Notes: generated by a model not told the origin, from the sequence alone. 28,789 nt of DNA from an uncultured Candidatus Saccharibacteria bacterium (GCA_964474185.1 CAYYRI010000001.1:1-28789); one strand, 5' to 3'. Shown: positions 1,633 to 27,391, numbered from the stretch's first letter. Translations and numbers: made by a program.

Positions 1633-2625
1633 TTACTGAGTTAATTTATTTAAGACCTTTGTCATGCTTTCTCCGGAAGTCGTCCAGAGGAAGTAATCAT
1701 CAAGCATGGAATAGCAGATGCCGAAATTGGCTGGCGGGAAAGAAATATAGCGGAAGCTCGTTCCCTTATAGGAAGCCGTCCTGAAGTAAGAAACCGGGGC
1801 CATCCCTTGTTTTCCCAAGACCGTGAAAAGCGCTTCCGTGTCTTTTTCCATCGTCGGCTCCCAGGAATTCAACGCGTTAACCAGGCCCGCCTTGTCTTTG
1901 ATTTCGGCCGCAAAACCCAGCCGGTTTGCGCCTATGCTGGAATAAATGAATAAAGTGAAGTCGTCGTTTAATTTATCCAGGAATCCTTCGGGCGTTTTTA
2001 CTTGGAATAATTCAAAAAATTCTTTTAATCCTAAAATTTTATTTTCCGTTTTGTTTTCGATTAAAATCCGCACAAAACTGTCGGCATCAAATTTTTTCCC
2101 CAAAATATCCGGTAAAGAAGTCGATGCTTCTATCGGAGACGAAATTTCCAATGTTTCGGTGGCGTTTACCGAAATTAAAGATAGGGGGATGACAATTTCC
2201 TGCCCTTCGGTAACTTCTTCTCCCGTGGGAGTTATTTCTTCTCCGGGCGTTATCTCTTCCTCCGGAGGATTCTCCGTTTTCCTTATCCCGAAGAACCAAT
2301 AAAAAAATCCAACGAATAAAAAAAGAACCGACACAGCAATTATTCTTATCAGAACTTTTTGAAAAGGAGAAGGTTTTTTTGGGAATTTCGGAATTAAGCT
2401 TTCAACCTTTCCTTTTTCTATTCCCTCCTCTTCTTTTTCGACCCGTCCTGCGGGAAGCTTGCTCGCCTCGGGAATTTTTTCTCCCGGGGTTATCGCGGCA
2501 ATTCTTTCTCTTTCTTTCTGAGCTTCCGTTTCCCGGAGCCTGGCAACGTCTTTTTGCATTGTGACGATTTCTTCTCTTTTCAGAAATTCCAACCTCTCCT
2601 CCGGTTTTTTTTGATTTTCCTCCAT
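1633..2625 (-). CDS. Hypothetical single-pass membrane protein (charged N-terminus, one TM helix, about 200-aa C-terminal domain)
   Basis: 330-aa ORF. TM segment IRIIAVSVLFLFVGFFYWFF, followed by a Pro/Glu/Thr-rich linker. Tightly packed, starting 3 nt after the pnp stop. No family recognised. Confidence 0.65.
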   Translation of the reverse strand: MEENQKKPEERLEFLKREEIVTMQKDVARLRETEAQKERERIAAITPGEKIPEASKLPAGRVEKEEEGIEKGKVESLIPKFPKKPSPFQKVLIRIIAVSVLFLFVGFFYWFFGIRKTENPPEEEITPGEEITPTGEEVTEGQEIVIPLSLISVNATETLEISSPIEASTSLPDILGKKFDADSFVRILIENKTENKILGLKEFFELFQVKTPEGFLDKLNDDFTLFIYSSIGANRLGFAAEIKDKAGLVNALNSWEPTMEKDTEALFTVLGKQGMAPVSYFRTASYKGTSFRYISFPPANFGICYSMLDDYFLWTTSGESMTKVLNKLTQ

Positions 2626-2628
2626 TTT

Positions 2629-4791
2629 TTAGGGTTTGTCTCTCGCCTCTTTTAACGAGAGGTTAATTCTTCCTTGTTCGTCAATTGAAATCACTTTAAC
2701 GGGAATAATATCCCCGATTTTTACTATGTCTTCCACTTTATTGACTCGATAGTCAGCCAACTGGGAAATGTGAACCAGTCCGTCCTGGCCGGGTAAAATT
2801 TCGACGAAAGCGCCGAAATCCAGAATTCTTTGTACTTTGCCCTGGAATATTTCCCCCACTTTTACCTCTCTGGTGATATTTTTTATCCAGTCGGCGGCTT
2901 TTATTCCGGCTGTTTCTTTTTCAGCGGTGATGAAGATTCTCCCCGAATCTTCGATGTCGATTGAAACTCCGCACTCTTCGATTATTTCATTGATAATTTT
3001 CCCTCCGGGGCCGATCACCTCCCTGATTTTCTCGGGATTAATCTGCAGAATTATGATTCTCGGGGCGTAGGGTGAAAGTTCGGGCCTGGAGCTTGAAATA
3101 ACCTTTGACATTTCGTCCAGGATCTGAAGCCGGGCCCTTTTTCCCCGGGCAAGGGCTTCTTTTAAAATTTCTTCTCCGATTCCCTCGATTTTTACATCCA
3201 TCTGGATCGCGGTTATCCCGTCTTTTGTTCCGGCTATCTTGAAATCCATGTCTCCGTGATGATCTTCCGGTCCCTGTATATCGGTTAAAATTTTGTAATT
3301 GCCTTTGCCATCCTGCATCAATCCCAGAGCGATTCCGGCCGCCTGTTTCTTTATCGGCACTCCGGCATCCATCAAAGCCAAAATTGAACTGGAAACCGAA
3401 GCCATTGAAGTGGAGCCGTTGGATGAAAGAATTTCAGTGACAATTCTCATCGTGTAAGGAAATTCATCAAAACTCGGAATGAGGGGGAACAAAGCTTTTT
3501 CCGCCAGCATGCCGTGGCCGATTTCCCGCCTGCCCGGCCCCCTTAAGGGTTTTATCTCTCCGGAAGAATAGGGCGGAAAATTGTAGTGATGCATAAAACG
3601 TTTTTTCCCGGTAACTTCCATGCCTTCCAGCAGTTTTACGTCGCTCGGCGCTCCCAAAGTTAAAATCGAAAGAGCATGGGTGATGCCCCGGCAAAATAAA
3701 CCCGAGCCGTGAGTTCTCGGCAGTAATCCCACCTCAACCTGGATTTTTCTTATTTCATCGATTTTCCTGCCGTCGGGTCTTTTTTCCGAAGCGATCGCGT
3801 TTTTATGGACCAATCTGTTGATTTCTTCCTCGAAAATCCGAGCCGCAGCGGAGGATGAAGAAGAGGATTTATTCTCTTCGCCCATACTGGCAGGATATTT
3901 CCTCCGGATATGATAAATCAGCTCGTCTTTAAGTTGATTTACATCGTCCATCCTTTCTGCTTTGTCTTTCTGATAAAGGGCATTTTCCAGCCTGTCCCCC
4001 AGAAAATCCTTGATTTCTTTTTCCAATTCCGGATCTTGCGGAGGCTCGTTGATTTTAATTTTTTCTTTCCCGACTTTTTCGGCAATTTCTTTTTGGAAAT
4101 CGATCAGTTTTTTTAAATAAGGCTTGGCCGATTCTATCGCCTCCACGACCACGCTTTCCTCGATTTCATCTCCTTCGAGCTCCATCATACTGATCAAAAC
4201 ATCGTCATTATCTTTGTTCCCTAAAAATCGCGCGGATGGGGAAGACATCCCCGTTACGGCAAAATCCAAATTGCTTTTTTCCCTTTCGGCATAGGTAGGA
4301 TTCAAGATAAATTTTTCTTCTCCTTTTCCGATTCTCAAAGCGGCTATGGGGCCTGACCAGGGAATGTCGGATATGGAGAGCGCAAGAGAGGCCGCAATCA
4401 ATCCTATGATATCCGGGTCGTTTTCTCCATCCCAGGAAAGGCAGGTGACAACCACCTGAACTTCTCTTTTTAAATTCTGGGGAAAGCAGGGCCTGATTGC
4501 TCTGTCGATGAATCGGGAAGTCAAAATAGCCTCATCCGAAGGCCGACTTTCCCTTCTTAAGTACCTGGAACCTAATATTTTTCCGGCGGCATAAAATCTT
4601 TCCTCATAATCAACGGTTAAAGGGAAAAAACCCGCTCCCTCAGATTCGTTTTTAGACATTACCGCCGTAGCCAAAACCAGAGTGTCTCCGTATTGAACCA
4701 AAACATTGCCCGACGCTTGTTCGGCCAGATTCCTGATTTCCACTTTAAGTTCTTTTCCTCCGATTTCTAGTTTGAAAGTTTCCTTGATCAT
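2629..4791 (-). CDS. pnp: Polyribonucleotide nucleotidyltransferase (PNPase)
   Basis: 720 aa. Two RNase PH-like halves (FPLTVDYEERFYAAGKI; GLLPRTHGSGLF), KH (GPGGKIINEIIEE) and S1 (VGEIFQGKVQRILDFGAFVE) domains. Confidence 0.97.
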   Translation of the reverse strand: MIKETFKLEIGGKELKVEIRNLAEQASGNVLVQYGDTLVLATAVMSKNESEGAGFFPLTVDYEERFYAAGKILGSRYLRRESRPSDEAILTSRFIDRAIRPCFPQNLKREVQVVVTCLSWDGENDPDIIGLIAASLALSISDIPWSGPIAALRIGKGEEKFILNPTYAEREKSNLDFAVTGMSSPSARFLGNKDNDDVLISMMELEGDEIEESVVVEAIESAKPYLKKLIDFQKEIAEKVGKEKIKINEPPQDPELEKEIKDFLGDRLENALYQKDKAERMDDVNQLKDELIYHIRRKYPASMGEENKSSSSSSAAARIFEEEINRLVHKNAIASEKRPDGRKIDEIRKIQVEVGLLPRTHGSGLFCRGITHALSILTLGAPSDVKLLEGMEVTGKKRFMHHYNFPPYSSGEIKPLRGPGRREIGHGMLAEKALFPLIPSFDEFPYTMRIVTEILSSNGSTSMASVSSSILALMDAGVPIKKQAAGIALGLMQDGKGNYKILTDIQGPEDHHGDMDFKIAGTKDGITAIQMDVKIEGIGEEILKEALARGKRARLQILDEMSKVISSSRPELSPYAPRIIILQINPEKIREVIGPGGKIINEIIEECGVSIDIEDSGRIFITAEKETAGIKAADWIKNITREVKVGEIFQGKVQRILDFGAFVEILPGQDGLVHISQLADYRVNKVEDIVKIGDIIPVKVISIDEQGRINLSLKEARDKP
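3837..3882 (-). repeat. GC-rich hairpin repeat inserted in phase within pnp (encodes GEENKSSSSSSAAARIF)
   Basis: Minus strand GGCGAAGAGAATAAATCCTCTTCTTCATCCTCCGCTGCGGCTCGGA closely matches 10021-10066, 10258-10303 and 20401-20446. Confidence 0.75.
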
Positions 4792-5899: not shown

Positions 5900-6385
5900 C
5901 TATTGGATCGGACATTTCCCCGTGAATTCCCACCAATTTCCCAGACCCGTCCACTCTTGAATGCCCATGAAACCAAGGAGGGTGTTCAGAAGAATCCAAG
6001 CTATAAAAATAATCACTATGCCGATAATCGCCGCCGTAATCACTGATTTTGCCCGGTTCAAACTTTGGGGATTAATGCCGGCGGTTAAAAGATATAATCC
6101 GCCGATGATCAGCATTAGACCGCCGATTACGGGAGTGAGACAGGTCAGAATGAAATTAATGATATTGGTGATAAGGACAAAAATATGGCAGAATTGGCAA
6201 GCTGGCTGTTCCTGTCCTCCGCAGGGGACAATCGGTCCGCCGCAGTCCGCCAGAACCTGATTAGCCGGAAATAAAAAAAATCCGATTAGAATTCCTGACA
6301 ATATTAAATTTGGAAATTGGAATCTGGAAGCGAAGAGCGTTTGCTTTTCTTTATTTCGTTGCGACTCGATAATTGAAAATTTCAT
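5900..6385 (-). CDS. VirB2/TrbC-like (T4SS-pilin-like) small membrane protein of the type common in CPR genomes
   Basis: Signal/TM segment, then Cys motif CGGPIVPCGG...ACQFCHIFVLITNIINF, then two hydrophobic helices (PVIGGLMLIIGGLYLLTAG...AAIIGIVIIFIAWILLN). Start taken at MKFSII (6385); the upstream ATG at 6400 lies in a hairpin. Confidence 0.6.
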   Translation of the reverse strand: MKFSIIESQRNKEKQTLFASRFQFPNLILSGILIGFFLFPANQVLADCGGPIVPCGGQEQPACQFCHIFVLITNIINFILTCLTPVIGGLMLIIGGLYLLTAGINPQSLNRAKSVITAAIIGIVIIFIAWILLNTLLGFMGIQEWTGLGNWWEFTGKCPIQ

Positions 6386-6415
6386 ATACTGAGCTTCCAT
6401 TTATTATTTATGGAA

Positions 6416-8304: not shown

Positions 8305-8376
8305 CTCACTTTACTGAAAAATTTTTACCTCGCTTGAATTTGATTATTTAGAAATTAAGATTTAGAAATTATTATA

Positions 8377-8447
8377 CGGGGCATAGTATACCGGTAGTAC
8401 GCACGCTTCGGGTGCGTGAAGATTGGGTTCAATTCCCAATGCCCCGA
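8377..8447 (+). tRNA. tRNA-Pro (anticodon CGG)
   Basis: 71 nt. Acceptor CGGGGCA/TGCCCCG (the C1:G72 pair typical of bacterial tRNA-Pro), anticodon stem CACGC/GCGTG, loop TT-CGG-GT, T arm TTGGG-TTCAATT-CCCAA, discriminator A. CCA is not encoded. Confidence 0.9.
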
Positions 8448-8450
8448 CAT

Positions 8451-8524
8451 GGGCCTGTAGTAAAACGGCATTACGCGGCATTCGCATTGCCGAGGTCCGG
8501 GTTCAATTCCCGGCAGGTCCACCA
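8451..8524 (+). tRNA. tRNA-Ala (anticodon CGC), CCA encoded
   Basis: Acceptor GGGCCTG/CAGGTCC with the G3:U70 alanine identity pair, loop TT-CGC-AT, T arm CCGGG-TTCAATT-CCCGG, ACCA 3' end. Confidence 0.92.
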
Positions 8525-11286
8525 TGAATTCAATGCCTTTTCTCTGGATAATTTTTAGTTATTTTTTAGGGTCTATTCCCTTCGGTTATTTAATCGGCCG
8601 TTTATCGGGAAAAAATGTTTTAGAAGTTGGCTGGAGAAAAACTTCGGGCAGCAATGTTTTTAAAAACGTAGGAAAATGGCAGGGAGTTTTGACTGCAATT
8701 TTAGATGTTTCCAAAGGATATGCGGCAGTTTACGGAGCCAGGACGCTGGGCCTATCTTCGGAAGTTCAGGTTCTTTCCGGGGTGGCGGCGGTTACGGGCC
8801 ATAATTGGTCTCTGTTTTTGAAATTTGCCGGAGGGCGGGGCATCGGCACCTTTGCCGGCGCCTTTTTGGCTTTGTCTCCCCAAATTCTTCTCTTTTCCAT
8901 CATCCCCCTTATTATTTTAGCCATTGTTTGGAATGCCGCAATCGGGACCATTTTATTTTTATTCACTGCAATTTTCCTTTCCCGGTATCTTAATCAATTT
9001 GGGACGGCGGGAGTTTTTACAACTTTGTCCTTAGTCCCCATTTTCATTAAAAGATTAAGCCCGATCGAAGAAATCAAAGAATCTCAGAGAAAAGCGCAAT
9101 TATTAAGAAATCGTCTTATTTTTGACGATGACGTGGCTTTGTTGGAGTTGAGAATCAAAAGAATTTTCCAAAAAACAAAAGGCAGCCACGGTTTATTTAT
9201 GAAAATAATGAAACCCGTTACCGCTCCTTTCTGGCTGCCCCCGAAAGTCGGCTGGCAGGTGGCGAAATTCGGGGTAAAGATGGCTAAAAAACCGATAGGC
9301 AAATTTATTTTGAAACCTCAGGAAAAAGTCGTTAACGAAATTAAAACAGAGGACTTTAAAAAAATGATGGTCGCCGCCGCCAAAAAAATCGTTGTGCATC
9401 AGGAGGAAATCAACAAAATAAACGTTTTCCCCGTGGCGGACAAAGATACTGGTTATAATTTGGCGGCTACTTTATTGGGGATTGAGGGAACAATCTCCCA
9501 AAGAAATTACCAAACCCTTAGAGAGTTGACCAAAGACATCAAAGAGGCGGCGATGATTAACGCCAGGGGAAACGCCGGAATGATTTACACGGGTTATCTG
9601 ATTGAAGTTCTGGACAGAGTGAAACATTTGGAAACGATAGATGCCTTTCATTTGGCTCTGGCGATGCGAAGAGGGATAAAAGCGGCAAGATCCTCCATTG
9701 CGGAACCCGTGGAAGGAACGATTTTGGACACGGTAAAAGCCGCCGGAGAAAGAGCTTATGAAGTCGCCAAATTTAAAGATCCCGCCCTCGGCAAACAGGA
9801 AAAAAACATAATTAAAATGCTGGAGGAAGCTCAGAAGAGCTCGGATATCGCCCTTAAAGAAACGAAAGAGAAATTACAAGTTTTGAAGGAAAACGACGTG
9901 GTTGATGCCGGGGCCCTGGGTTTCGTCAAAATCTTAGAGGCCTGGGTTGAAAGCCTGAAGGGAGTTGAAGTAGCCAGCCCCATTTTTTCGCCGGAAACAG
10001 AAGAGAAGCTAAAATACAGAGTCGAAGAGGATAAATCCTCTTCTTCACCCTTCGCTGCGGCTCGGGTATACGAAGTGGTGCTGAGTTTCAGAAAAAATAA
10101 AGAAATCAGCGCAGAAGATTTAAAAAATGAATTATCTTCTTTGGGCGACAGTTTGGAGATTCTGGAACTGGAAGACAAAATCAAACTTCATATTCATACG
10201 AACGAGCCGGAGCTTGTTCGAGAAAAATTCAGGCACTTGCCGGAGTTTGAATCAAGGGTCGAAGAGCTTTTATGCTCTTCTTCACCCTTCGCTGCGGCTC
10301 GGGCGATTGAAGACATGGAACATCCGGGCTTGGCAGGCGATGAATCTAAAGATTCATCTTCACCTACCCGAGCGCAGCGAAGGGTGGAAAAGAACAGAAT
10401 GTTCTTTGATTCGCCTCGCCGCGCGCTCGGCTTGGTGGTTGATGAAGTTGCCGATTTACCGAAAGAATTTTTAGAAAAATATAATATTGAAGAAGTGCCT
10501 TTTACGACCAGGTTTCCGGACGGAGAATTCATCACTTCAAAAGAAGATATTTATCAGAAAATGAAAGAAGCTTTGGCAACCGGGCGCCATTTGCCCACTA
10601 CTGCCGCCCCTTCGTTCAAAAATTTCCTTTCGGTTTATCAAAACGCTCTGAAAAATTTTGAAAAAATTTTGGTGATCACCATTTCTTCGAAGCTTTCCGG
10701 CGCTTACAGTTCGGCCAGAATCGCCCGTTCCGTTTTCAAAAAACCGGAAAAGCTTGATATCTTCGTTTTCGACTGTTTTACCGCCGAAGTCGGCGAAGGT
10801 CTGGCCGCGATAAAAACGCAGGAATTGATTTCCCAGGGCAAAACGACCGAAGAGATTGTGGAAAAACTGAAAGAATTTTGTCCAAAGATTACTTTATTGG
10901 CCTGCATAGACGATTTTAAATACGTAGTCAGGGGAGGAAGAGTCAGATTGCCAAAAATATTCATTGGACCTACCTCGTTCATCCAGAAATTGGGAATCAG
11001 GTTTTTGGTGGGTTTGAAAAACGGAAAGGTCAAATTCTTCGGGGCGAGTTTGGGGAAAGACAAGGCGAGAATCCTGGCCGAAGAGATTGATCTGCAAAGA
11101 CGAGGCGGAGCTATCCAGGTGGCCATAGCCCACGCCGATAATTTGAAAGAAGCCCAGAAACTTAAAACCGAACTGGAAAAAAGGCCCCAAATAAAAGTTT
11201 TATACATTTCTTCGGTATCGCCGGTGGTGGCAACCCATACGGGGCCCGGGGCGCTTCTCGCGGCCTTTCATCCGATTGACAAATAA
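8524..11286 (+). CDS. plsY: Single ORF fusing a PlsY-like acyl-phosphate:G3P acyltransferase, a Dak2/DhaL (FakA-like) kinase module and a DegV (FakB-like) fatty-acid-binding domain
   Basis: PlsY part, residues 1 to about 195: LGSIPFGYLIG, DVSKGY, GHNWSLFLKFAGGRGIGT, multiple TM helices. Dak2 part, about 270-480: INVFPVADKDTGYNLAAT. Central part: LGDSLEILELEDKIKLHIHTNEP. DegV part, about 637-920: VVDEVADLPKEFLEKYNIEEVPF...TTAAPSFKNFL...ITISSKLSGAYSSA. No stop codon anywhere in 920 codons. Confidence 0.85.
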   Translation: MNSMPFLWIIFSYFLGSIPFGYLIGRLSGKNVLEVGWRKTSGSNVFKNVGKWQGVLTAILDVSKGYAAVYGARTLGLSSEVQVLSGVAAVTGHNWSLFLKFAGGRGIGTFAGAFLALSPQILLFSIIPLIILAIVWNAAIGTILFLFTAIFLSRYLNQFGTAGVFTTLSLVPIFIKRLSPIEEIKESQRKAQLLRNRLIFDDDVALLELRIKRIFQKTKGSHGLFMKIMKPVTAPFWLPPKVGWQVAKFGVKMAKKPIGKFILKPQEKVVNEIKTEDFKKMMVAAAKKIVVHQEEINKINVFPVADKDTGYNLAATLLGIEGTISQRNYQTLRELTKDIKEAAMINARGNAGMIYTGYLIEVLDRVKHLETIDAFHLALAMRRGIKAARSSIAEPVEGTILDTVKAAGERAYEVAKFKDPALGKQEKNIIKMLEEAQKSSDIALKETKEKLQVLKENDVVDAGALGFVKILEAWVESLKGVEVASPIFSPETEEKLKYRVEEDKSSSSPFAAARVYEVVLSFRKNKEISAEDLKNELSSLGDSLEILELEDKIKLHIHTNEPELVREKFRHLPEFESRVEELLCSSSPFAAARAIEDMEHPGLAGDESKDSSSPTRAQRRVEKNRMFFDSPRRALGLVVDEVADLPKEFLEKYNIEEVPFTTRFPDGEFITSKEDIYQKMKEALATGRHLPTTAAPSFKNFLSVYQNALKNFEKILVITISSKLSGAYSSARIARSVFKKPEKLDIFVFDCFTAEVGEGLAAIKTQELISQGKTTEEIVEKLKEFCPKITLLACIDDFKYVVRGGRVRLPKIFIGPTSFIQKLGIRFLVGLKNGKVKFFGASLGKDKARILAEEIDLQRRGGAIQVAIAHADNLKEAQKLKTELEKRPQIKVLYISSVSPVVATHTGPGALLAAFHPIDK
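10021..10075 (+). repeat. GC-rich hairpin repeat, in phase inside the fusion ORF (encodes VEEDKSSSSPFAAARVYE)
   Basis: GTCGAAGAGGATAAATCCTCTTCTTCACCCTTCGCTGCGGCTCGGGT contains the hairpin GAAGAGGA-TAAA-TCCTCTTC. About 46 of 52 nt are identical to the intergenic copy at 20401-20452. Confidence 0.8.
10258..10413 (+). repeat. Cluster of three hairpin-repeat modules (one direct, one hairpin-only, one inverted) forming the linker before the DegV domain
   Basis: 10258-10303: GTCGAAGAGCTTTTATGCTCTTCTTCACCCTTCGCTGCGGCTCGGG. 10339-10358: GATGAATCTAAAGATTCATC. 10366-10413: ACCCGAGCGCAGCGAAGGGTGGAAAAGAACAGAATGTTCTTTGATTCG, the reverse complement of the family consensus with a different but still paired hairpin. 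Confidence 0.75.
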
Positions 11287-11350
11287 GTTTTTTTTGTTAG
11301 AATTAAATCAGTCCGTGAAAATTGCGGACACTTTTATTAACAAATAACAA

Positions 11351-11481: not shown

Positions 11482-13689
11482 ATGGACATAAAAAATTTTG
11501 CATCGGCCATCGCCCAAATTGCCGAAGAAAAAGGCATTTCAGCGGAAAAGGTTTTGGAAACCATTGAGATGGCCATCGCCGCCGCTTACAAAAAGGATTA
11601 CGGCAAAAAAGGCCAAATAATCAAAGCCAAGCTTGATTCGGAATCTGGCGATGTTAAGTTTTGGCAGGTGAAATTGGCGGTTGCAAAATCAATGATTTAT
11701 TCCGAAGAAGAATTGAAAAAGCTCGCGGAGAAAGCCGCAATTTCTCAAAGGCCAGTTTCCGTCGAGAATGAATTCTCGGAAGAAGAAATCAAAGGCGAAA
11801 AGAAAGTTCGTTTTAACCCCGAGAAGCATATTATGCTCGAGGACGCAAAAAAGATAAAACCGAAAATAAAAGCGGGCGAAGAGTTTGAAACGCCTTTGGA
11901 ACCTCAGAAAGATTACGGAAGAATTGCCGCCCAGACGGCAAAACAAGTAATTCTCCAGCGAATCAGGGAAGCGGAAAAAGAAAGCATATTCTCTGAATAT
12001 AAATCCAAGGAAGGAGAAATAATTTCCGGTATCGTCCAGAGGATCGAGGGCAGAAACGTCTTTTTGGACATAGGCAAGACATTGGGCGTTTTGCCGAGAG
12101 AAGAGCAGGTTATGGGAGAATTTTACCGCCCCGGCCAGCGGCTTAAAGCATACGTTTTGAAAGTTGATGAAACCCCTAAGGGCCCAATAATTTTTTTATC
12201 AAGAGCTTATCCAAAATTGATTTCAAAGCTTTTTGAATTAGAGGTGCCTGAAATTTCTTCCGGCCAGGTCCAGATAAAATCAATTGCCAGAGAGGCTGGT
12301 TCGAGGTCGAAAATTGCGGTGGCGACCGAAGCGGATGGAGTAGATCCGATAGGAAGCTGTTTTCCGGGCAGAACTTTAATTCTAATGGAGGATTTCAGTT
12401 ATAAACCCATTGTTCAACTATCAAAAGGAGAAGTAGTTTTCACTCATTTAGGGAACCGAGAAATAATCTCAAAAACTTTTAAAAGGATATGGAATGGAAC
12501 TACTTTAAAATTTGAAGTTTTTGGAATTCACCAGAATTTAGAAGTTACTAAAGAACATCCGTTGCTTTTTACCCTTGGCTACGACCAAAAAAAAGAATTT
12601 AAAGAAGCTTCGAGAATTAAAAAAGGCTATTTAGCAATCCCTACTTTAGAAAATGTAGTATTTGATAAAACTATTTATCATTTCGAAAAAGAAAAAGATT
12701 TTTTATGGGTTTTGGGAATATATTTAGCTGAGGGTTCTTTGGATCGCGCGGAGGTTAATTTCACCCTCTCTAAACAAGAAAAAGATAAAGCATTAAAGAT
12801 AAAAGATATAATGGAAAAATATGGGGGCAAGGTTTATATTAGAGAATCTAACTGTCGCCCTTCAGTTTTAGATATTAAATTATTTGGAGAATATTGGAGA
12901 AAAATATTCAAAGAATTGGGCGGAGAGTATTGCGATAGAAAAAAAATAAATTCAAGATTAATGTTTTTAAGCCCAAAATTACAACTCGAAATTTTCAAAG
13001 GGTGGAAAGATGGAGATGGTTATTTTGATAAGAAAAGAAACCGAACTATAATAGTTACAACCTCAGAGAATCTTCTATGGCAGATGTATCATATTTTACT
13101 TAGAAATAAAATTAGAGCCAATATGCAAAAACGAAAAGACCGAGAGGGTCGAAAAGATGCTTATCAATTGGAAATCGCCAATAATAAGACGAGAGATTAT
13201 CGGGGATTTTTTCGAGGTGATTATTATTTTTCACGCATCAGAAAAATAGAAAGAGGACCTTGTTCTTCGGGCCGCCAGGTTTACAACCTTGAGGTAGGGG
13301 ATGATAATTCCTATATAGCTTACTCAGTGGCAGCACATAATTGTGTCGGCCAAAAAGGAACGAGAGTAATGGCCGTGATAAACGAACTGGGCGGAGAAAA
13401 AATCGATATTATCGAATATTCGCCAGAACCCGAAAGGTATATTGCCAACGCCTTATCCCCCGCCAAAGTTTTAGAAGTAAAAATTCTGCCGAAAAATAAA
13501 GCCCAGGCCGTTGTTCCCGAAGACCAATTGTCTTTGGCCATCGGCAAAGACGGCCAAAACGTCAGATTAGCGGCGAAATTAACGGGCTGGAAAATAGACG
13601 TTAAGGGTCCGGAAGAGGAAAAAAAACAAGAAGTCGAAGAAACAAAAAAAATAAAAAAACCAAGAAAAAAACCCAAAAATAAAATATGA
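11482..13689 (+). CDS. nusA: Transcription termination/antitermination factor NusA, interrupted by an intein
   Basis: N-terminal domain, S1 ([21 protein letters not shown]) and KH1/KH2 domains. The extein junction DPIGS|C...HN|[24 protein letters not shown] restores the conserved DP(V/I)G(A/S)CVG motif. Lys-rich C-terminal tail. Confidence 0.95.
12358..13341 (+). mobile_element. Intein (328 aa) with LAGLIDADG homing-endonuclease domain inside nusA
   Basis: Cys1 ([13 protein letters not shown]), block B TKEHP, LAGLIDADG motifs LGIYLAEGS and [11 protein letters not shown], block [23 protein letters not shown] followed by +1 Cys. In frame (residues 293-620). Visibly more AT/Lys-rich than the flanking nusA sequence. 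Confidence 0.9.
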
Positions 13690-16435: not shown

Positions 16436-17470
16436 ATGAAAAAGTTTTGGAATTCAAAAAAGTTTTGGCTGATTTTTGCCCTAATTGGAATAGGGCTTTT
16501 TATTTGGTTTTTCTGGCCTTCCGCCAAAATTCGATGGGGAGTTCCCGAAGAAATTAAAAATTCCGCCGGAACTCAGACAGAAATTAACAAATCGGTTTCT
16601 TCCGTCTATCGATACGATTTCCAAAAACAAGAGTATCTTTCCGACGAAGGACAAAGCTGGCAAAACTCGGACCTTGTTCGTTTTATTTACGATTTGGCTC
16701 CCGCAGGTTCAACATTAGAAAAATGTTATTATTTTCTTTATGACAATTTGAAAAAAGAAATGACGGGAGGGGGCCAGAGAAAATGCAATTCAAATCTGAC
16801 AATTACGGTCGGAGAAAATAAAAATTGCTCCTCGCAGAGCGAAAACGCCTGCACTTTATACGCATATGCGGTGGATAATTCAGGAATTCAGGGCGAGATG
16901 GCAACGGTCACTTATCACATTGATTGGGAATCTCCCAAAGTAGGAAAAGTTTCCAAGCAGGATGGCATCTTCCGGGCCGAAGTTTCGGATAATATTAAAG
17001 TGGGATATTGCTGGCTTTATCTTAATAATAAAAATGTGGGGTCAATGAAAATAGAAAATAGTTTGACTGTTTTAGAATATCTTGTCTCCGATAAAGAATC
17101 CTATGCCGCTTTTATAAGATGCGCCGACCAATATGATTCGGGAAGAGCGGGATATCTTAACTTAGCTTTCGGAGAGTCAGCCGAGTTTATGATTCCGGTA
17201 AACCATCCTCCCCAGATTTCTTTCTGCAGGGTTTCTCCTACTCAAGGGGGTATCCAGACTGATTTTCAATTCAGCGCGGCGGTCTCGGATTCTGACGGAG
17301 ACAGTCTTTCTTATAATTGGGATTTTGGAGACGGGAAAAGCTCCGACGAAGAAAATCCCATTCATCAATATTTTTCTCCCGGAACTTACACGCCAAAAAT
17401 CACTGTTTCCGACGGAAAAGGAGAAGAGGTTAGCTGCTCCACCGCTTGGGCGGTTGTCTCTAAAGAATAA
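16436..17470 (+). CDS. Membrane-anchored/secreted protein with C-terminal PKD domain
   Basis: N-terminal TM helix (FWLIFALIGIGLFIWFFW). The C-terminus FSAAVSDSDGDSLSYNWDFGDGKSSDEENPIHQYFSPGTYTPKITVSDGKG is a typical PKD repeat. Confidence 0.8.
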   Translation: MKKFWNSKKFWLIFALIGIGLFIWFFWPSAKIRWGVPEEIKNSAGTQTEINKSVSSVYRYDFQKQEYLSDEGQSWQNSDLVRFIYDLAPAGSTLEKCYYFLYDNLKKEMTGGGQRKCNSNLTITVGENKNCSSQSENACTLYAYAVDNSGIQGEMATVTYHIDWESPKVGKVSKQDGIFRAEVSDNIKVGYCWLYLNNKNVGSMKIENSLTVLEYLVSDKESYAAFIRCADQYDSGRAGYLNLAFGESAEFMIPVNHPPQISFCRVSPTQGGIQTDFQFSAAVSDSDGDSLSYNWDFGDGKSSDEENPIHQYFSPGTYTPKITVSDGKGEEVSCSTAWAVVSKE

Positions 17471-17489: not shown

Positions 17490-18152
17490 ATGGTTAAAAA
17501 ATTTTTAAAGATTTCTCTATTTGCCGGAATTTTGGGTTTTTTCATTTTTGGAGCAGGTTTTTCTTTTGCCGTAAGTGCGCCGACCGGTCTGACTCCCTGC
17601 GGCGGAGAGCAGCCCTTAGCTGTTATGCTTGATTGGGACGATGCGGCAGTCCATCATTATGAATTGTATTACAAGAAAACGGATGAAACCAACTGGCAAG
17701 ACAGGTATCCTTCGATATCTCAATATCAGGTAACGGGTTTGTCGCCCGGCCAGAATTACGAATGGTATGTGGTAAGCTGCGGCAATGCCGAATGCAGCGA
17801 CAAGGCCCAGAGCGGAGCCTGTTCTTTTATCACTCAGCAATTGGCTCCTCCGCCCGGCGATGGCAACGGCGGCAACGGCGGCGATAACAGTCCCGTAGAT
17901 TTGACTAATCCCTTGCAAGCCAAAACTTTACAGGAAGCGATTGACGCTTTTGTTAAATTCCTTTTTTATCTTGCGATGGCAGTGGCTCCGATTTTAATAG
18001 TTTACGCGGGTTTCTTGATTCTTACGGCCGGCGGCGACGCGACAAAAATAAAAAAAGCAAGACAAATAATTTTGTGGACCTTGATAGCGGTGGCTATCAT
18101 TCTATTTGCTAAAGGTTTTCCCGCTCTGATAAAAGGGGCTTTGGGAGGATAG
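17490..18152 (+). CDS. Signal peptide + FN3-like domain + Gly/Asn linker + VirB2/TrbC-like pilin-like C-terminal domain
   Basis: FN3-like segment: APTGLTP...YELYYKKTDETNWQDRY...YQVTGLSPGQNYEWYVV. C-terminal two-helix hydrophobic module: FLFYLAMAVAPILIVYAGFLILTAGGDATKIKKARQIILWTLIAVAIILFA, like the 5900-6385 protein. Confidence 0.65.
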   Translation: MVKKFLKISLFAGILGFFIFGAGFSFAVSAPTGLTPCGGEQPLAVMLDWDDAAVHHYELYYKKTDETNWQDRYPSISQYQVTGLSPGQNYEWYVVSCGNAECSDKAQSGACSFITQQLAPPPGDGNGGNGGDNSPVDLTNPLQAKTLQEAIDAFVKFLFYLAMAVAPILIVYAGFLILTAGGDATKIKKARQIILWTLIAVAIILFAKGFPALIKGALGG

Positions 18153-20400: not shown

Positions 20401-20452
20401 GCGAAGAGGATAAATCCTCTTCTTTACCTTTCGTTGCGGCTCGGGTGTATGA
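20401..20452 (+). repeat. Intergenic copy of the GTCGAAGAG-hairpin repeat family
   Basis: GCGAAGAGGATAAATCCTCTTCTTTACCTTTCGTTGCGGCTCGGGTGTATGA is near-identical to the coding copy at 10021-10075. Confidence 0.75.
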
Positions 20453-22012: not shown

Positions 22013-23767
22013 ATGAGGGTAGAACCGCAACAATTAAAAGCCTTTCTTTTGGACGCCAAATTGGTTACCGAAGAGCAATTCGACGGGGCCGCAAAGATTG
22101 CCCAAGATTCCAATCAAAGAGTGGGAGATGTTTTAGTTTCCCAAGGAATTATTCCCCAGGAAGATCTGATCAAATTGGAGGCATATATTTTGGGGATTCC
22201 GTTCGTCAATTTGGAAAAAGAGAAAATTGAAGATGAAATTTTAAAGATGATTCCCGAGCCCATAGCCCGTTCGAATAACATCGTCGCTTTCAGAAAAAAA
22301 GGAAACGAGCTGGAGGTGGCGATGCTCGACCCCGAAGATTTGAGAACGATCGAATTCATTAAAAAAACGGCCAATCTTAAAATCTTACCCAGATTAACCA
22401 CTCCCGAAAGCATTAAAAACGTCTTGAGACAATATCAACAAACTTTGGAAGTCGAATTCGGAGAAATTATAAAAAAAGAGGCCGGAGTGATAAAACCGAT
22501 AAAGGAAGAAGAAACAGTGGAAACGGGAGAAGACCTCAGGAAAGCGGCCGAAGAATTGCCGGTAATTAAAATTGTCGATACTTTATTGAAACACGCCATC
22601 TTGCAGAGAGCTTCGGACGTTCATATTGAGCCCACGGAAAAAGAAGTTCTGGTCCGTTATCGAATCGATGGAATTTTGAGAGACGCCATGACTCTGCCCA
22701 GATTAGCCGCCTCGGGAATCGTCGCCAGGATAAAAGTCCTTTCCAATCTGAAACTTGACGAACACAGGCTTCCCCAGGACGGACGTTTTAAGGTTGAAGC
22801 CGAGGATTACAAATATTCAATAAGAGTTTCAGTTTTGCCGGTTTTCGACGGCGAAAAAATCGTAATGAGGCTTCTGCCGGAAACCGCCAAAGCTTTTACC
22901 TTGGAGCAGATAGGGTTAAGAGGAGATGCGTTGGAAACCATTCAGGATAATTTAAGGAAACCGGTAGGTATGCTTTTAGTAACCGGTCCCACCGGTTCCG
23001 GGAAAACCACTACCCTATACGCAATGATGGAAATTTTAAATACCCCCGGCGTAAACATTTCAACAGTTGAAGATCCTATTGAATATAGGATGCCCAGAGT
23101 TAATCAGACTCAGGTTAATCCCAAAATCGGCCTGACTTTTGCTTCGGGGTTGAGATCTCTGGTCAGACAAGACCCGGACATACTTATGGTCGGAGAAATC
23201 CGAGACAGCGAAACCGCAGGCTTGGCGATTAACGCCGCCTTAACCGGGCATTTGGTTCTTTCAACTTTGCATACTAATTCCGCTTCAGGCTCCCTGCCCC
23301 GGCTGATCGATATGGGAGCCGAACCCTTTTTAATCTCCTCGACCTTAAATTGCATTTTAGCTCAAAGGCTGGTGAGGAGATTATCTGAGGAAAAGACAAA
23401 ATACATCCTGAAAGATTCCGAACTTAAAAACATAGCCAAATATTGCGATTTGGACAGGATTTTGAAAATTTTGAAAGAAGAAAAATTGGTGAAACCGAAA
23501 ACTGCCTGGAAGAGCATCGAATTCTTCAGACCCCCCTCGAAGATGAGCAAAGAAAGTCCGGAGGGCTACCGGGGGAGAATCGGAATTTATGAAGTTTTAC
23601 CGGTTACCGAAACCATAAAAGAATTAATCGTAAGACAGGCAAATTCCGACCAAATTCAGGCCCAGGCCCAAAAAGAAGGAATGAGGACGATGATCGAAGA
23701 CGGATTTATAAAAGCCGCCCAGGGAATAACCAGCATCGAAGAAGTATTAAGGGTAATTGTAGAGTAA
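22013..23767 (+). CDS. pilB: Type IV pilus assembly / type II secretion ATPase (PilB/GspE family)
   Basis: 584 aa. N-terminal MshEN-like domain, Walker A GPTGSGKTTT, Asp box, Walker B ILMVGEIRD, His box LVLSTLHTN. Confidence 0.95.
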   Translation: MRVEPQQLKAFLLDAKLVTEEQFDGAAKIAQDSNQRVGDVLVSQGIIPQEDLIKLEAYILGIPFVNLEKEKIEDEILKMIPEPIARSNNIVAFRKKGNELEVAMLDPEDLRTIEFIKKTANLKILPRLTTPESIKNVLRQYQQTLEVEFGEIIKKEAGVIKPIKEEETVETGEDLRKAAEELPVIKIVDTLLKHAILQRASDVHIEPTEKEVLVRYRIDGILRDAMTLPRLAASGIVARIKVLSNLKLDEHRLPQDGRFKVEAEDYKYSIRVSVLPVFDGEKIVMRLLPETAKAFTLEQIGLRGDALETIQDNLRKPVGMLLVTGPTGSGKTTTLYAMMEILNTPGVNISTVEDPIEYRMPRVNQTQVNPKIGLTFASGLRSLVRQDPDILMVGEIRDSETAGLAINAALTGHLVLSTLHTNSASGSLPRLIDMGAEPFLISSTLNCILAQRLVRRLSEEKTKYILKDSELKNIAKYCDLDRILKILKEEKLVKPKTAWKSIEFFRPPSKMSKESPEGYRGRIGIYEVLPVTETIKELIVRQANSDQIQAQAQKEGMRTMIEDGFIKAAQGITSIEEVLRVIVE

Positions 23768-23808: not shown

Positions 23809-24174
23809 ATGGATAAAATTAAAAATTCAAAACAATACGATTTAGAAGAACGCACATTCGAATTTGCAAAGAGAGTAAGAATTTTTGTTAAAGAACTTTC
23901 CAAGACAATAGGAAATATTGAAGATGGGAAACAACTTATCCGATCTTCCGGTTCAATTGGCGCTAATTATATTGAAGCAAATGAATCTTTAAGCAAGAAA
24001 GATTTCGTTATACGAATTAAAATCTGTCGCAAAGAAGCAAAAGAGAGTAAATACTGGTTGCTGCTTATAGATGTTTATAACAATCAAAAATTGGAAAAAG
24101 AACGCCAAGAGCTTACAAAAGAAGCCACTGAGTTAATGATGATTTTCAGTTCCATTATGAGAAAATCTATGTGA
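23809..24174 (+). CDS. Four-helix-bundle protein (23S rRNA intervening-sequence protein / Avd-like family)
   Basis: 121 aa. YDLEERTFEFAKRVRIFVKEL...GKQLIRSSGSIGANYIEANESLSKKDF...ICRKEAKESKYWLLL is characteristic of this family. Confidence 0.85.
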   Translation: MDKIKNSKQYDLEERTFEFAKRVRIFVKELSKTIGNIEDGKQLIRSSGSIGANYIEANESLSKKDFVIRIKICRKEAKESKYWLLLIDVYNNQKLEKERQELTKEATELMMIFSSIMRKSM

Positions 24175-24183
24175 AAAAAGAAT

Positions 24184-24606
24184 ATGAAATACAAAAATCC
24201 AAAAGTTATAGAAAATAAGGTCACTAAAAATATTGAGGATAAGGCAAAAGATTATATTGTTAAATATTTAAAAGAACATGACGGGATAAAGGCCGACGAT
24301 ATTAAGCGGAAATTAAAAAAGGGAGCTGATATTAAAATTTTCAAAAATGGAAAATGCATAAAATGGATTGAAGCAAAGGGTTGCAATAAAAAAGAAACAA
24401 ATATCAGAATTACACCTCAATCGTTATTCACAATTGCAGAAGAAGGCGGGCTTAAAAATTACTTTATCTATTTTGTTTATGAAATGAATTCTAAAAAGCC
24501 GAAGCTTGTCATTTTTGATTATGAAACATTCAAGAAACATAAAATTATAGAAATTAAGTATATAATTCAACCATCTAAAATTAAACATAAGGTAATAGGT
24601 TTATGA
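24184..24606 (+). CDS. Small PD-(D/E)xK nuclease-fold-like protein (DUF3883-like pattern)
   Basis: 140 aa. GADIKIF-x9-IEAKG gives a D...E-x-K arrangement, followed by IRITPQSLFTIAEE and YFIYFVYEM, as in DUF3883-type domains. The call is based on motifs only. Confidence 0.55.
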   Translation: MKYKNPKVIENKVTKNIEDKAKDYIVKYLKEHDGIKADDIKRKLKKGADIKIFKNGKCIKWIEAKGCNKKETNIRITPQSLFTIAEEGGLKNYFIYFVYEMNSKKPKLVIFDYETFKKHKIIEIKYIIQPSKIKHKVIGL

Positions 24607-24668
24607 TTTTGAATTTTGAATTTGGAATTTAGATATTGTTTCGAATTTCGATATTCGAATTTCGAATT
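24605..24668 (+). repeat. Heptamer tandem array (ATTTTGA / TCGAATT units) at the right edge of the pilB-pilC insert
   Basis: ATTTTGA ATTTTGA ATTTGGA ATTTAGA TATTGTT TCGAATT TCGATAT TCGAATT TCGAATT. The TCGAATT part is an imperfect inverted copy of the left array. Confidence 0.65.
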
Positions 24669-24677
24669 TAAATAAGT

Positions 24678-25898
24678 ATGCCGAAATATTTTTATATTGC
24701 AAAATCTTTGAAAGGAGAAGAAAAATCCGGAGTAATGGAAGCAAAAGACACGCACCAGCTGGCGGAAACCTTGAAAAATCAGGGGTTTATTTTAATTAAA
24801 GCCGAACTCGAGAAGGGTAAGTCGGGAAAAAGAAAAATTAATTTTTCCGTCCCCTTTTTCGGCGGAGTTTCATTGACGGAAAAAATGATGTTCACCCGTA
24901 ATCTTCAGGTGATGATATCTGCGGGTCTTCCCCTGCCGAGATCCCTGGAGACTCTGGCCCTCCAAAGTAAAAGTAGGGTATTTAAAAAAGCGCTTTTGGA
25001 AATAAAAGAAGAAATAACCAAGGGAAAAAGTTTTTCCGAAACCCTGGCAAAATACCCCAATATTTTTTCCGAACTTTTTCAAAGCATGATCAGGGTTGGC
25101 GAAGAATCGGGCACCTCGGAAGACGTTTTGAAAGTTTTAACCAGGCAGATGGAAAAAGAACACGAGCTGCGTTCAAAAATACAGGGGGCGATAATGTATC
25201 CTACGGTCATACTTTGCACCATGATTGGCATCGGTGTTTTAATGCTTGTCATGGTCGTTCCAAAACTCGCGGAAACTTTTAAGGAATTGGAAATAGAACT
25301 TCCGGTTACCACCAAAATAGTCATTGGTCTCGGCACTTTTTTGGTCGAAAAGTGGTTTTTGATTGTCCCGATTATTATCGGTTTTTCGTTTTTGTTCTGG
25401 ATGGTTCTGAGAACCCAGACGGGGAAAAAAATAATTGATACCTTGTTCTTGAAACTTCCCATCATTTCCCCCCTCATTAAAAAAACGAACTCGGCTTCTA
25501 CTGTTAGAACCTTAAGCTCTCTTATTGCTTCCGGCGTTCCCATTGTTAAGTCTTTGGAGATTGTTTCGGGAACCTTGGGAAATATGTATTATAAAAACGC
25601 CGTTTTGGCGGCGGCGCAAATCGTCAGAAAGGGAGGAAAACTATCCGAAGCCTTATCAGTCTACCAAGACATTTATCCTCCGATTGTTTTTCAAATGATC
25701 CAGGTGGGAGAGGAAACCGGAGAAACGTCGAGCATTCTATCCAAACTGGCTGATTTTTTTGAAACCGAAGTGACCAATGCCACTCAAAACATGGCCTCGT
25801 TGATCGAGCCCGTTTTAATGCTGATTATCGGAGGAGCAATAGGCTTTTTCGCCATTTCAATGGTTCAGCCCATGTACTCGATGCTTGGGGCATTGTAA
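24678..25898 (+). CDS. pilC: Type IV pilus / T2SS platform protein (PilC/GspF family)
   Basis: 406 aa. Two T2SSF repeats (FTRNLQVMISAGLPLPRSLE...; TVRTLSSLIASGVPIVKSLE...) and three TM segments. Confidence 0.95.
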   Translation: MPKYFYIAKSLKGEEKSGVMEAKDTHQLAETLKNQGFILIKAELEKGKSGKRKINFSVPFFGGVSLTEKMMFTRNLQVMISAGLPLPRSLETLALQSKSRVFKKALLEIKEEITKGKSFSETLAKYPNIFSELFQSMIRVGEESGTSEDVLKVLTRQMEKEHELRSKIQGAIMYPTVILCTMIGIGVLMLVMVVPKLAETFKELEIELPVTTKIVIGLGTFLVEKWFLIVPIIIGFSFLFWMVLRTQTGKKIIDTLFLKLPIISPLIKKTNSASTVRTLSSLIASGVPIVKSLEIVSGTLGNMYYKNAVLAAAQIVRKGGKLSEALSVYQDIYPPIVFQMIQVGEETGETSSILSKLADFFETEVTNATQNMASLIEPVLMLIIGGAIGFFAISMVQPMYSMLGAL

Positions 25899-26805: not shown

Positions 26806-27380
26806 GCAAAAAAAAGGTTAAAAATTATTCATCGCGGGGATTTTCTTTGACCGAACTGCTGATTACCATAACCATTTTTGTTATGGTTACCAGCGCGGTC
26901 TACGGGGGATATTCTTTAAGCCAAAAAGCCTATTCGGAGGGCGAAATATCTGCCGAAATAACCCAAAACGGCAGGGTAATTATCGAAAGGATCAACAGGG
27001 AAATTCGTCAGGCAAAAGAAATAGTGGGCGATTTTCCGGAAGAAAGAGCATTTGCCCAGGAAGAAATCATATTCGAAGACGGCCACACGACAACAACTTA
27101 TCATTATATTCGTTATTTTAAAGCCGACGGAGAAATAAAAAGAGAAGTAACGGGATATTATTTTTCCGGCGACCCCGAGGAAACGCTTGTTCCCTGGGAC
27201 GCCGTGCCTCCCGTGGGCCAGACTCTGCAGACCAAAACCTTGGAAGAGGCAAGGACGATTGGAGAATGGGTTTTAAATCTGGAATTCTGGGGCTCGAAAG
27301 TGATAAATATTGCCTTAACCCTTCAAAAAAAAGACAAAGTTTTCATTTTGGAATCAGAAATTTTCGGCAGGAATTTATAA
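26802..27380 (+). CDS. Prepilin-type protein, PilW/GspJ-like minor pilin
   Basis: MSKKKVKNYSSRG|FSLTELLITITIFVMV. Its start overlaps the previous stop (ATGA). Confidence 0.8.
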   Translation: MSKKKVKNYSSRGFSLTELLITITIFVMVTSAVYGGYSLSQKAYSEGEISAEITQNGRVIIERINREIRQAKEIVGDFPEERAFAQEEIIFEDGHTTTTYHYIRYFKADGEIKREVTGYYFSGDPEETLVPWDAVPPVGQTLQTKTLEEARTIGEWVLNLEFWGSKVINIALTLQKKDKVFILESEIFGRNL

Positions 27381-27391
27381 AATTATTTTAC

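Follow-up and report, generated by a model that had tools for sequence, protein, structure and literature searches.

The window analysed here, a 28,789-nt stretch of DNA from an uncultured Candidatus Saccharibacteria bacterium (GCA_964474185.1, CAYYRI010000001.1:1-28789), contains on its plus strand an open reading frame (ORF; 8524..11286) of 920 codons. The frame runs from an ATG start to a TAA stop with no interruption over 2.76 kb, exactly as had been stated in an earlier reading made without databases (the sequence-only reading). The encoded 920-amino-acid (aa) protein consists, in this order, of a PlsY-type membrane acyltransferase domain (termed PlsY* below), a linker, a Dak2 kinase domain, a FakA-type middle domain (FakA_M) and a DegV domain. 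Four Pfam families are matched: G3P_acyltransf/PlsY (PF02660; aa 12-171, E 9e-30, 104.3 bits against a gathering score of 24.1), Dak2 (aa 303-475, E 3e-25), FakA-like_M (PF21645; aa 517-572, E 3e-10, 40 bits against a cut-off of 24.9), and DegV (PF02645; aa 636-911, E 2e-51, 175 bits against 27, profile positions 3-273 of 280). Domain E-values of this order in one unbroken 2.76-kb frame are far beyond chance. The C-terminal domain of FakA (FakA_C/Dak1_2, PF13684) has no Pfam match in the 920-aa protein even at E ≤ 1, and a complete DegV domain stands in its place. Among NCBIfam models, the DegV model TIGR00762 scores 198 bits (cut-off 99.7) and only the N-terminal half of YloV is matched (profile 1-284 of 530). 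The YloV and FakA models are matched over their own first ~285 positions only, at 210 versus 396 and 132 versus 975 bits, far under their cut-offs. Pfam, NCBIfam, and Foldseek thus agree on the domain order and identities and on the replacement of FakA_C by DegV that the sequence-only reading had proposed, and the profile search that it had suggested (PlsY, Dak2, and DegV present, Dak1_2 absent) gave every predicted outcome. A full-length AlphaFold2 model built with 56 homologues has a pLDDT of 78.6, with confident domains (mostly 78-94) joined by disordered linkers (219-222, 252-265, 483-512, and 584-629).

Judged by conserved residues and modelled folds, the soluble half looks catalytically competent. 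The Dak2/FakA_N ATP-binding kinase domain (9328..9963, + strand; aa 269-480), delimited by Pfam and by HMMER alignment to 7w7h_A, 8vip, and 7rm7, superposes on Staphylococcus aureus FakA_N (7rzk/8vit) with TM-scores of 0.94-0.96 and a root-mean-square deviation (rmsd) of 1.3 Å in Foldseek. The ADP-(Mg)2 ligands of S. aureus FakA_N are Asn32, Asp38, Asp40, Thr41, Asn82, and Asp185 (PMC9136124); their counterparts N300, D306, D308, T309, N350, and D461 are invariant in all 56 sequences of the alignment. The FakA middle (L/M) domain (10069..10269, +; aa 516-582), recognized by FakA-like_M and by alignments, carries H556-I-H558 at the position of S. aureus FakA H282/H284, and this His pair is likewise invariant in the family. 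Mutation of H282/H284 lowers FakA activity ~100-fold (PMC9136124). The complete DegV/FakB-type fatty-acid-binding domain (10417..11283, +; aa 632-920; PF02645 and TIGR00762 both above cut-offs) has a two-lobed EDD fold that superposes on FakB1, TM841, and TTHA-type DegV structures in Foldseek (TM-scores of 0.80-0.86 and rmsd of 2.6-4.6 Å to 5uto, 6alw, 1mgp, 2dt8, 4x9x, and 7w7h_E); it was also aligned to TM841 and Bacillus subtilis DegV. The FakB1 carboxylate network of Thr62-Ser95-His270 and the catalytic Arg173 (PMC8892158) align with T693, S721/S722, H905, and R806, which are conserved in 48 (T693), 43 (S721), 47 (S722), 49 (H905), and 55 (R806) of the 56 homologues. All three modules had been placed here from the sequence alone, the Dak2/DhaL module at residues ~270-480 followed by a FakA-type central module and a C-terminal DegV domain, and each of these assignments holds.

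The FakA_C of S. aureus and Streptococcus suis, a degenerate domain of DegV/DhaK-like type, docks FakB and pairs with FakA'_N (PMC10848957), and FakA_NL lacking FakA_C is still active when given 10 µM FakB. By analogy, a true DegV domain tethered at the FakA_C position can replace FakA_C docking, and the loss of FakA_C would make sense because the covalently attached DegV supplies a high local concentration of a FakB-like partner.

The membrane half begins with a seven-helix core (8524..9057, +; aa 1-178) defined by PF02660, a domain model, and motif conservation, with predicted helices at 3-27, 51-74, 79-94, 107-117, 119-135, 138-155, and 159-178 and the family motifs GW[RK]KTSGSNV (36-45), GHNWS (92-96), and GGRG (103-106). 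When the N-terminal 225 aa were modelled alone (pLDDT 91, pTM 0.87), the only significant PDB matches were five PlsY chains (5xj5-5xj8; TM-scores of 0.73-0.76 over 188-192 columns, 29% identity). The core is followed by a cytoplasmic helical extension specific to PlsY* (9058..9177, +; aa 179-218), seen in the alignments and modelled at pLDDT >90. It is preceded by an invariant K176-R177-L178-S179-P180 and contains an invariant R197 and near-invariant F200/D201. Together, K-R-L-S-P and the extension stand where the canonical motif 3 (H-x-x-N-I-x-R-L) would be, and the extension also occurs in stand-alone PlsY* genes (213-252 aa). The Lys- and aromatic-rich tether that comes next (9178..9327, +; aa 219-268; pLDDT 43-58, a low-confidence model) is restricted to the fused form, where it is moderately conserved as LLPPKxGWxxAKFGVKxAKKPI (47-76% identity in relatives by tblastn).

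Since the kinase modules hang off the end of the membrane domain, the sequence-only reading had asked on which side of the membrane that end lies. In Aquifex PlsY, both long functional loops are cytoplasmic, as is the active site, the glycerol-3-phosphate (G3P) site opens to the cytoplasm, and the motif-3 tail after the seventh transmembrane helix supplies G3P-binding residues (PMC5700162). The motif-1 loop of PlsY* has six Lys and Arg residues against one Asp or Glu, and the tail after the seventh helix (aa 176-270) has 22 against 8. The seven-helix PlsY fold (by homology) and the strongly basic tail (by the positive-inside rule) both predict a cytoplasmic C-terminus for the membrane domain, from which the kinase and DegV modules would hang in the cytoplasm.

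Residues of PlsY* were compared with those of Aquifex and Escherichia coli PlsY in a register on which HMMER alignment to 5xj5 and MAFFT agree without gaps, with conservation counted over the 56 homologues. An alternative motif-1 register that aligns S41-G42-S43-N44 with G-S-G-N was rejected, since it requires a 4-residue shift and breaks the fixed spacing to L-D-x-x-K-G. The 'phosphate hole' that holds the acyl-phosphate in PlsY is formed by His92, Thr41, and the G-G-K-G-V-A loop (PMC5700162). It is retained in PlsY*: His92 corresponds to H93 (55 of 56 homologues), Thr41 to S43 (a conservative change, invariant), and G-G-K-G(-V-A) to G-G-R-G(-I-G), in which G103-G104-R105-G106 is invariant. 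About 40 positions within aa 1-200 are invariant among sequences that are only 50-60% identical overall. The identity of PlsY* as an acyl-phosphate-dependent acyltransferase is well supported by these conserved positions and by the modelled fold.

The fusion recurs well beyond this assembly. An identical protein is encoded on an independent JGI metagenome contig on which the downstream genes match as well, and a variant in ENA is gap-free and identical at 912 of 920 positions (8 differences). A database search recovered at least 117 clusters sharing the architecture (50-99% identity at ~100% coverage, 814-920 aa, four Pfam domains), drawn from NCBI, JGI, ENA, and Logan assemblies. Only a few carry a name, in each case 'glycerol-3-phosphate acyltransferase' with Pacebacteria, Parcubacteria, or Patescibacteria as the source. 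When one genome per GTDB species was scanned and flanks of +/-6 kb were covered, 56 loci were found, and all but one (L040, titled as an 'uncultured Dehalococcoidales' metagenome-assembled genome) are of Patescibacteria type or uninformative by title. The host is an ultrasmall bacterium of the Patescibacteria, or Candidate Phyla Radiation (CPR), which makes up a large share of bacterial diversity. Among the 55 PlsY*-type genes are 17 one-frame fusions (763-899 aa, one of them cut by a contig end), 36 stand-alone genes of 213-252 aa, and 2 truncated genes. One locus of a Candidatus Nealsonbacteria genome (L017) is split with the order unchanged: a 223-aa PlsY-like gene, a gap of 219 nt, and a 638-aa protein with the basic tether at its N-terminus and Dak2-M-DegV after it. 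At syntenic loci of relatives, for example L024 (CCA-adding enzyme ... PlsY* ... NusA, H+-PPase), a stand-alone PlsY* gene lies upstream of nusA at the place where the window has the fusion. That the same partners are both fused and split within a single lineage is a classical signature of functional coupling, and from this distribution the fusion is evidently under selection. The survey of split and fused versions that had been suggested for this gene therefore yields both kinds. Nor is the fusion a one-off: the Dak2-M-DegV half is common as a stand-alone protein in several phyla, and PlsY-DegV fusions have been known since 2017.

Taken together, we consider it likely, at a rough probability of 60%, that the protein is a single-chain machine, anchored in the membrane, that incorporates exogenous fatty acids, a reading in which we infer the catalytic steps, the channelling, the dimerisation, and the acceptor. 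The C-terminal DegV domain would pick a free fatty acid off the membrane surface in the manner of FakB. The Dak2 and middle domains would then move the gamma-phosphate of ATP onto the bound carboxylate, yielding an acyl-phosphate, with the covalent tether of DegV standing in for the docking of FakB by the missing FakA_C. The labile acyl-phosphate would be handed to the seven-helix PlsY-type domain, either in the same chain or in the other chain of a dimer held together by the middle domain, and on the membrane's cytoplasmic face PlsY* would acylate an acceptor of glycerol-phosphate type. Since published analyses of the Patescibacteria find neither PlsX nor acyl carrier protein, the module would be the source of acyl-phosphate in this Patescibacterium. 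Acyl-phosphate is labile and is probably escorted (Li et al. 2017, PMC5700162), and a domain-swapped dimer is plausible because the M domain is the dimerisation module of FakA (PMC10848957). As the Dak2-M-DegV arrangement is widespread beyond the window, the protein is best described as PlsY* joined to a pre-existing single-chain fatty acid kinase. In Nealsonbacteria, PlsY and PlsC are present, PlsX and acyl carrier protein (ACP) are both absent, and the source of acyl-phosphate was stated to be unknown (Probst et al. 2020, a lipidomic study; PMC7242380); the PlsY found there is probably of the PlsY* family. The earlier proposal that all three steps of fatty acid incorporation lie in one polypeptide is upheld in that the binder, the kinase, and an acyltransferase-family domain share one chain, but not for the acylation of G3P. 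Likewise, its view of a fusion for fatty-acid scavenging agrees with a real, selected fusion in a CPR host, though not with an orthodox PlsY role.

Several findings weigh against this reading. In Aquifex PlsY, the G3P pocket consists of a phosphate clamp (Ser35/Arg45/Lys104/Asn180) and the 2-OH ligands Ser142/His177, and Asn37 is the oxyanion residue (PMC5700162). Every one of these residues is substituted in PlsY*. Clamp residues Ser35, Arg45, Lys104, and Asn180 are replaced by Trp37, Lys47, Arg105, and Pro180, Ser142 and His177 by Thr142 and Arg177, and Asn37 by Lys39; all replacements are invariant in the 56 homologues except Lys47 (48 of 56). PlsY* also scores 93.3 bits on the PlsY equivalog model TIGR00023 of NCBIfam, under the cut-off of 137.2, and the stand-alone PlsY* scores 97.2 bits. 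The phosphate clamp is retained by a different paralogue in related genomes (type A, G-S-K-S-x-T-A-T-N-V-A-R ... R-N-N-I-K-R-L), whose copy at L036 reaches 142.9 bits, above the cut-off. On the kinase side, the third catalytic residue of FakA is Cys240, the S. suis equivalent of which (Cys244) forms a C1H3 zinc site with both His residues (PMC10848957). An equivalent of this Cys is missing here, where Y-C-T-E aligns to Y-[RQK]-Y-E; the position falls just before Y516 and is Arg, Gln, or Lys in most homologues and Val515 of a repeat insert in the window protein. The canonical Cys motif is kept in 175 of 240 sampled single-chain relatives of 540-680 aa, many of them outside the CPR, and the relatives lacking it include the closest Dak2-M-DegV kin of the window protein (for example P0130). 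Further, PlsY* occurs without an attached kinase in 36 of 55 species, so the fusion is not obligatory. Finally, the pTM of the full model is just 0.49 and its superposition on 7W7H has an rmsd of 26 Å, so that it is uninformative on the relative placement and interfaces of the domains. By its sequence, the PlsY domain is a distinct paralogue, and what had been proposed as an N-terminal PlsY-like acyltransferase is borne out in its PF02660 match, seven-helix fold, and acyl-phosphate site but not as an orthodox G3P acyltransferase. G3P remains the default acceptor by homology; with its ligands all replaced and 93 versus 137 bits on TIGR00023, the claim that the PlsY part acylates G3P is not supported and is an assumption only. 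The pocket stays basic and could bind G3P differently or hold another phospho-acceptor.

These substitutions give rise to the most serious competitor, in which the kinase front is the same and PlsY* is a new acyl-phosphate-dependent acyltransferase that does not use G3P. The acceptor would most attractively be a scavenged host lysophospholipid or lysophosphatidic acid, and the G3P step would fall to a separate PlsY paralogue. The whole set of G3P ligands is replaced, mostly by invariant residues and with a Trp in place of the clamp residue Ser35, while the acyl-phosphate site is retained and a conserved extra cytoplasmic extension takes the place of motif 3. A second PlsY-family gene lies within 6 kb at 16 of the 36 stand-alone PlsY* loci, one type of which exceeds the equivalog cut-off, and lysolipids are enriched in CPR cells, which have no ACP, the carrier that usually serves PlsC as donor (PMC7242380). 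No second PlsY-family gene was found within 6 kb at any of the 17 fused loci, however, the four basic pocket residues (K39, K47, R105, and R177) could still clamp the phosphate of G3P, and PlsC is reported in Nealsonbacteria (PMC7242380). We regard a non-G3P acceptor as possible but rather unlikely. If it proved true, PlsY*, the fused kinase, and the other PlsY paralogues would give the CPR a route of membrane lipid assembly and remodelling without ACP or coenzyme A, in which acyl-phosphate drives every acylation. The lost acceptor-site residues, the score under the equivalog cut-off, and the paralogues in related genomes could also mean that PlsY* is catalytically inactive, serving the kinase as a membrane anchor or as a portal for fatty acid or acyl-phosphate that another enzyme then uses. 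This appears improbable, since the pattern of ~40 invariant positions in aa 1-200, including H93 (55 of 56), S43, G103-G104-R105-G106, and the substituted pocket residues apart from K47, points to an active site and not to a mere anchor; PlsY* also stands alone as a gene in 36 species.

The remaining alternatives concern the fusion itself. The cell might make separate proteins from a genuine ORF, through internal starts or proteolysis of the linkers, and the fusion would then be mechanistically meaningless. The disordered linkers accept insertions of repeat elements, split forms are viable in relatives, and FakA domains function when supplied separately. Against this, the frame is kept across both junctions in at least 117 clusters, the tether sequence at the junction is conserved, and a consensus scan placed no promoter-like site on the + strand of the ORF before its last ~10 nt; separate products are accordingly very unlikely. 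An artefact of sequencing, assembly, or gene calling is less probable still. With the identical protein among the same neighbours on the JGI contig, the gap-free ENA variant, the recurrence in four sources of assemblies, and one-frame fusions in 17 species-level genomes, a false join in the assembly is ruled out by independent assemblies and conservation.

The reading as a machine for incorporating fatty acids has its closest functional parallel in the FakA/FakB-PlsY system of Firmicutes (S. aureus and S. suis; 7W7H, 7RM7, and 5UTO). The same three domain families occur in both, with identical ATP-Mg ligands in Dak2, the H-x-H of the middle domain, and the Thr/Ser/His/Arg carboxylate network of DegV, and in both the acyl-phosphate is consumed (here presumptively) by a membrane enzyme of the PlsY fold. 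In Firmicutes, however, three proteins share the work that one polypeptide would do in the window, and FakB is docked by FakA_C where the window protein has DegV instead. In addition, the window family does not conserve the C1H3 zinc-site Cys, its PlsY domain has an altered acceptor pocket and an extra C-terminal extension, and its host group lacks PlsX and ACP (PMC7242380). A parallel in architecture is provided by the PlsY-DegV fusions of Bellilinea and Thermanaerothrix (A0A0P6X7I7 and A0A0P6XUK7), which also carry an N-terminal PlsY with DegV on its cytoplasmic C-terminus; Li et al. (2017) took them to channel labile acyl-phosphate as a substrate (PMC5700162). Unlike the window protein, these two database entries from thermophilic Chloroflexi have no kinase (Dak2 and M) between the domains.

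In its C-terminal ~650 aa (269-920), the window protein has exactly the architecture of single-chain Dak2-FakA_M-DegV proteins of ~600 aa annotated as 'DegV family protein'. Examples are P0130, P0132, P0140, and P0176, which match the same three Pfam domains. These proteins have no membrane domain, and the CPR members are 36-50% identical to the window protein in the Dak2 domain. They are numerous in Patescibacteria, Zixibacteria, Atribacteria/Caldatribacteriota, Marinimicrobia, Bipolaricaulota, and other groups. Some of the ~600-aa proteins are matched by both PF13684 and PF02645, and proteins of ~830 aa matched by Dak2, FakA_M, PF13684, and DegV models also exist, the latter possibly a full FakA plus DegV. 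A preprint (bioRxiv 10.1101/2021.02.16.431466) credits Dak2-DegV fusions to Erni et al. 2006. No functional study of single-chain Dak2-M-DegV proteins was found in the literature. The pairing of Dak2 with DegV is that of DhaK/DhaL, in which a DhaL/Dak2 nucleotide domain phosphorylates the substrate that an EDD-fold partner holds, and the FakA_N/FakA_C pair has been described as mimicking it (PMC10848957). The substrate there is dihydroxyacetone, in contrast to the presumed fatty-acid carboxylate here, and DhaK/DhaL has no counterpart of the middle domain or the membrane acyltransferase. Neither a PlsY-Dak2-M-DegV fusion nor any Fak system in CPR was found in full-text literature searches, in which subscription journals are mostly uncovered. 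Dak2-DegV and PlsY-DegV fusions were already noted, and it is the triple fusion alone that appears to be undescribed.

To our knowledge, the Patescibacteria/CPR lack fatty-acid synthesis. A fused kinase would offer a concrete answer to what makes acyl-phosphate in PlsX-less CPR, as it is attached to PlsY* in about one third of the species, and free fatty acids phosphorylated and used on the spot would explain the lipid supply of bacteria without fatty-acid synthesis. The fusion would also lend natural support to channelling from FakB to PlsY, an idea that Li et al. (2017) put forward from two PlsY-DegV entries, and it suggests that FakA_C is dispensable once FakB is tethered. The remodelled PlsY* pocket, along with up to three further types of PlsY paralogue, suggests unexplored acyl-phosphate chemistry.

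These further paralogue types (A, B, and C) occur beside PlsY* in the relatives and differ in their acceptor-site motifs; type A alone passes the PlsY cut-off. Type B genes (G-T-G-N-V-G-A-M-N-V-S-R) often directly follow a Dak2-M-DegV gene, and type C is a third variant beside PlsY*. Further PlsY paralogues are present at L029, L032, L036-L039, L041, L042, L044, L047, L055, L046, L049, L050, L053, and L021. At L046, L049, L050, and L053, genes for the Fak double fusion lie directly upstream of PlsY-family genes, and at the first three of these the Dak2-M-DegV gene is followed after ~20-45 nt by a type B gene. A separate DegV gene, FakB-like and ~35% identical to the fused DegV, is found upstream of the fusion at six loci (L002 3610-4476, L003 6019-6888, L006, L010, L015, and L018). 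It adjoins the fusion gene directly in five of the six and may encode an extra subunit for fatty-acid selectivity; no such gene stands at that position in the window. In Nealsonbacteria-like genomes (L023 1939-5939; also L025, L030, L033, and L045), the stand-alone PlsY* gene is directly downstream of an operon of the biotin-dependent acyl-CoA carboxylase type, with genes for biotin carboxylase, biotin carboxyl carrier protein, biotin ligase, and an mmdA-like carboxyltransferase. Such an operon next to a lipid acyltransferase gene is unexpected where fatty-acid synthesis is reputedly absent. The gene upstream of PlsY* at L052, examined as a candidate G3P dehydrogenase, which would have spoken for G3P as the acceptor, gave only weak ApbA/PanE-like matches.

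The fusion gene follows two tRNA genes closely. A promoter-like site (8347-8375, +) precedes tRNA-Pro(CGG) (8377-8448, +) and tRNA-Ala(CGC) (8451-8524, +), and the latter abuts the ORF in such a way that the final A of its encoded CCA end is the A of the ATG at 8524. A second ATG (8533, Met4) coincides with the N-termini of homologues and may be the real start. The mRNA may derive from a processed tRNA-mRNA co-transcript and be nearly leaderless, because the only promoter-like site nearby is the one before the tRNAs. Within the ORF, the consensus scan gave no + strand promoter-like site before 11276-11303, which overlaps the stop codon, and a terminator-like hairpin follows at 11311-11329; all promoter and terminator calls come from consensus scans only.

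The window protein is ~55 aa longer than typical homologues of ~860 aa owing to short repeats inserted in frame in two disordered linkers. The first, a 48-nt insertion (10021..10068, +; aa 500-515, VEEDKSSSSPFAAARV; pLDDT 38), belongs to a repeat family (D1) with exact 28-mer copies and sits between LKYR and YEVV. Of the 56 homologues, 53 lack it, and it is confined to the window protein and the two relatives closest to it. The second makes up most of the M-DegV linker (10270..10416, +; aa 583-631; pLDDT 32-43), which is ~15 aa long in typical homologues. It is an in-frame palindromic element containing the inverted repeats I2, I3, and I7, with arms at 10270-10303 and 10358-10399 and a predicted RNA fold of -78.6 kcal/mol (z = -7.7). 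The dispersed repeat (core TCTTCTTCACCCTTCGCTGCGGCTCGGG) encodes ...KSSSSPFAAAR... when it stands in one orientation, and its inverted copy gives ...SSSPTRAQRRVEK... in translation. Further copies lie at 3837-3864 (-) and 20418-20445 (+), one of them inside the PNPase gene, in frame (NKSSSSSSAAARI), and the other intergenic. A degenerate 18-mer of the repeat had no match in 58 loci of relatives; related inserts are present at the same linkers in other family members. The repeat looks like an element of the miniature inverted-repeat transposable element or Rickettsia palindromic element type that is tolerated in coding sequence, and presumably resembles the Rickettsia elements in inserting into ORFs.

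Downstream of the fusion, nusA (11482-13689, +) encodes a NusA of 735 aa, compared with 381-408 aa in relatives, and contains an intein of 328 aa (12358-13341, +) with a LAGLIDADG endonuclease, Cys as the first residue, His-Asn as the last, and Cys at +1. The insertion site is the conserved DPIG|xVGQxGTRV motif in the first KH domain, and the G+C fraction over 12001-13000 is low, at 0.36. The ORFs at 1633-2625 (-) and 27266-28789 (+) have no Pfam match. Between genes for a type IV pilus ATPase (22013-23767) and a platform protein (24678-25898), two small ORFs (23809-24606; 23S_rRNA_IVP family and NOV_C) may form an inserted mobile or defence cassette; the G+C fraction is 0.32 over 24001-25000. 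Proteins with T4SS_pilin domains are encoded at 5900-6400 (-) and 17490-18152 (+), one of which also has an fn3 domain, and a protein with a PKD domain at 16436-17470; surface proteins of these kinds are typical of episymbiotic CPR.

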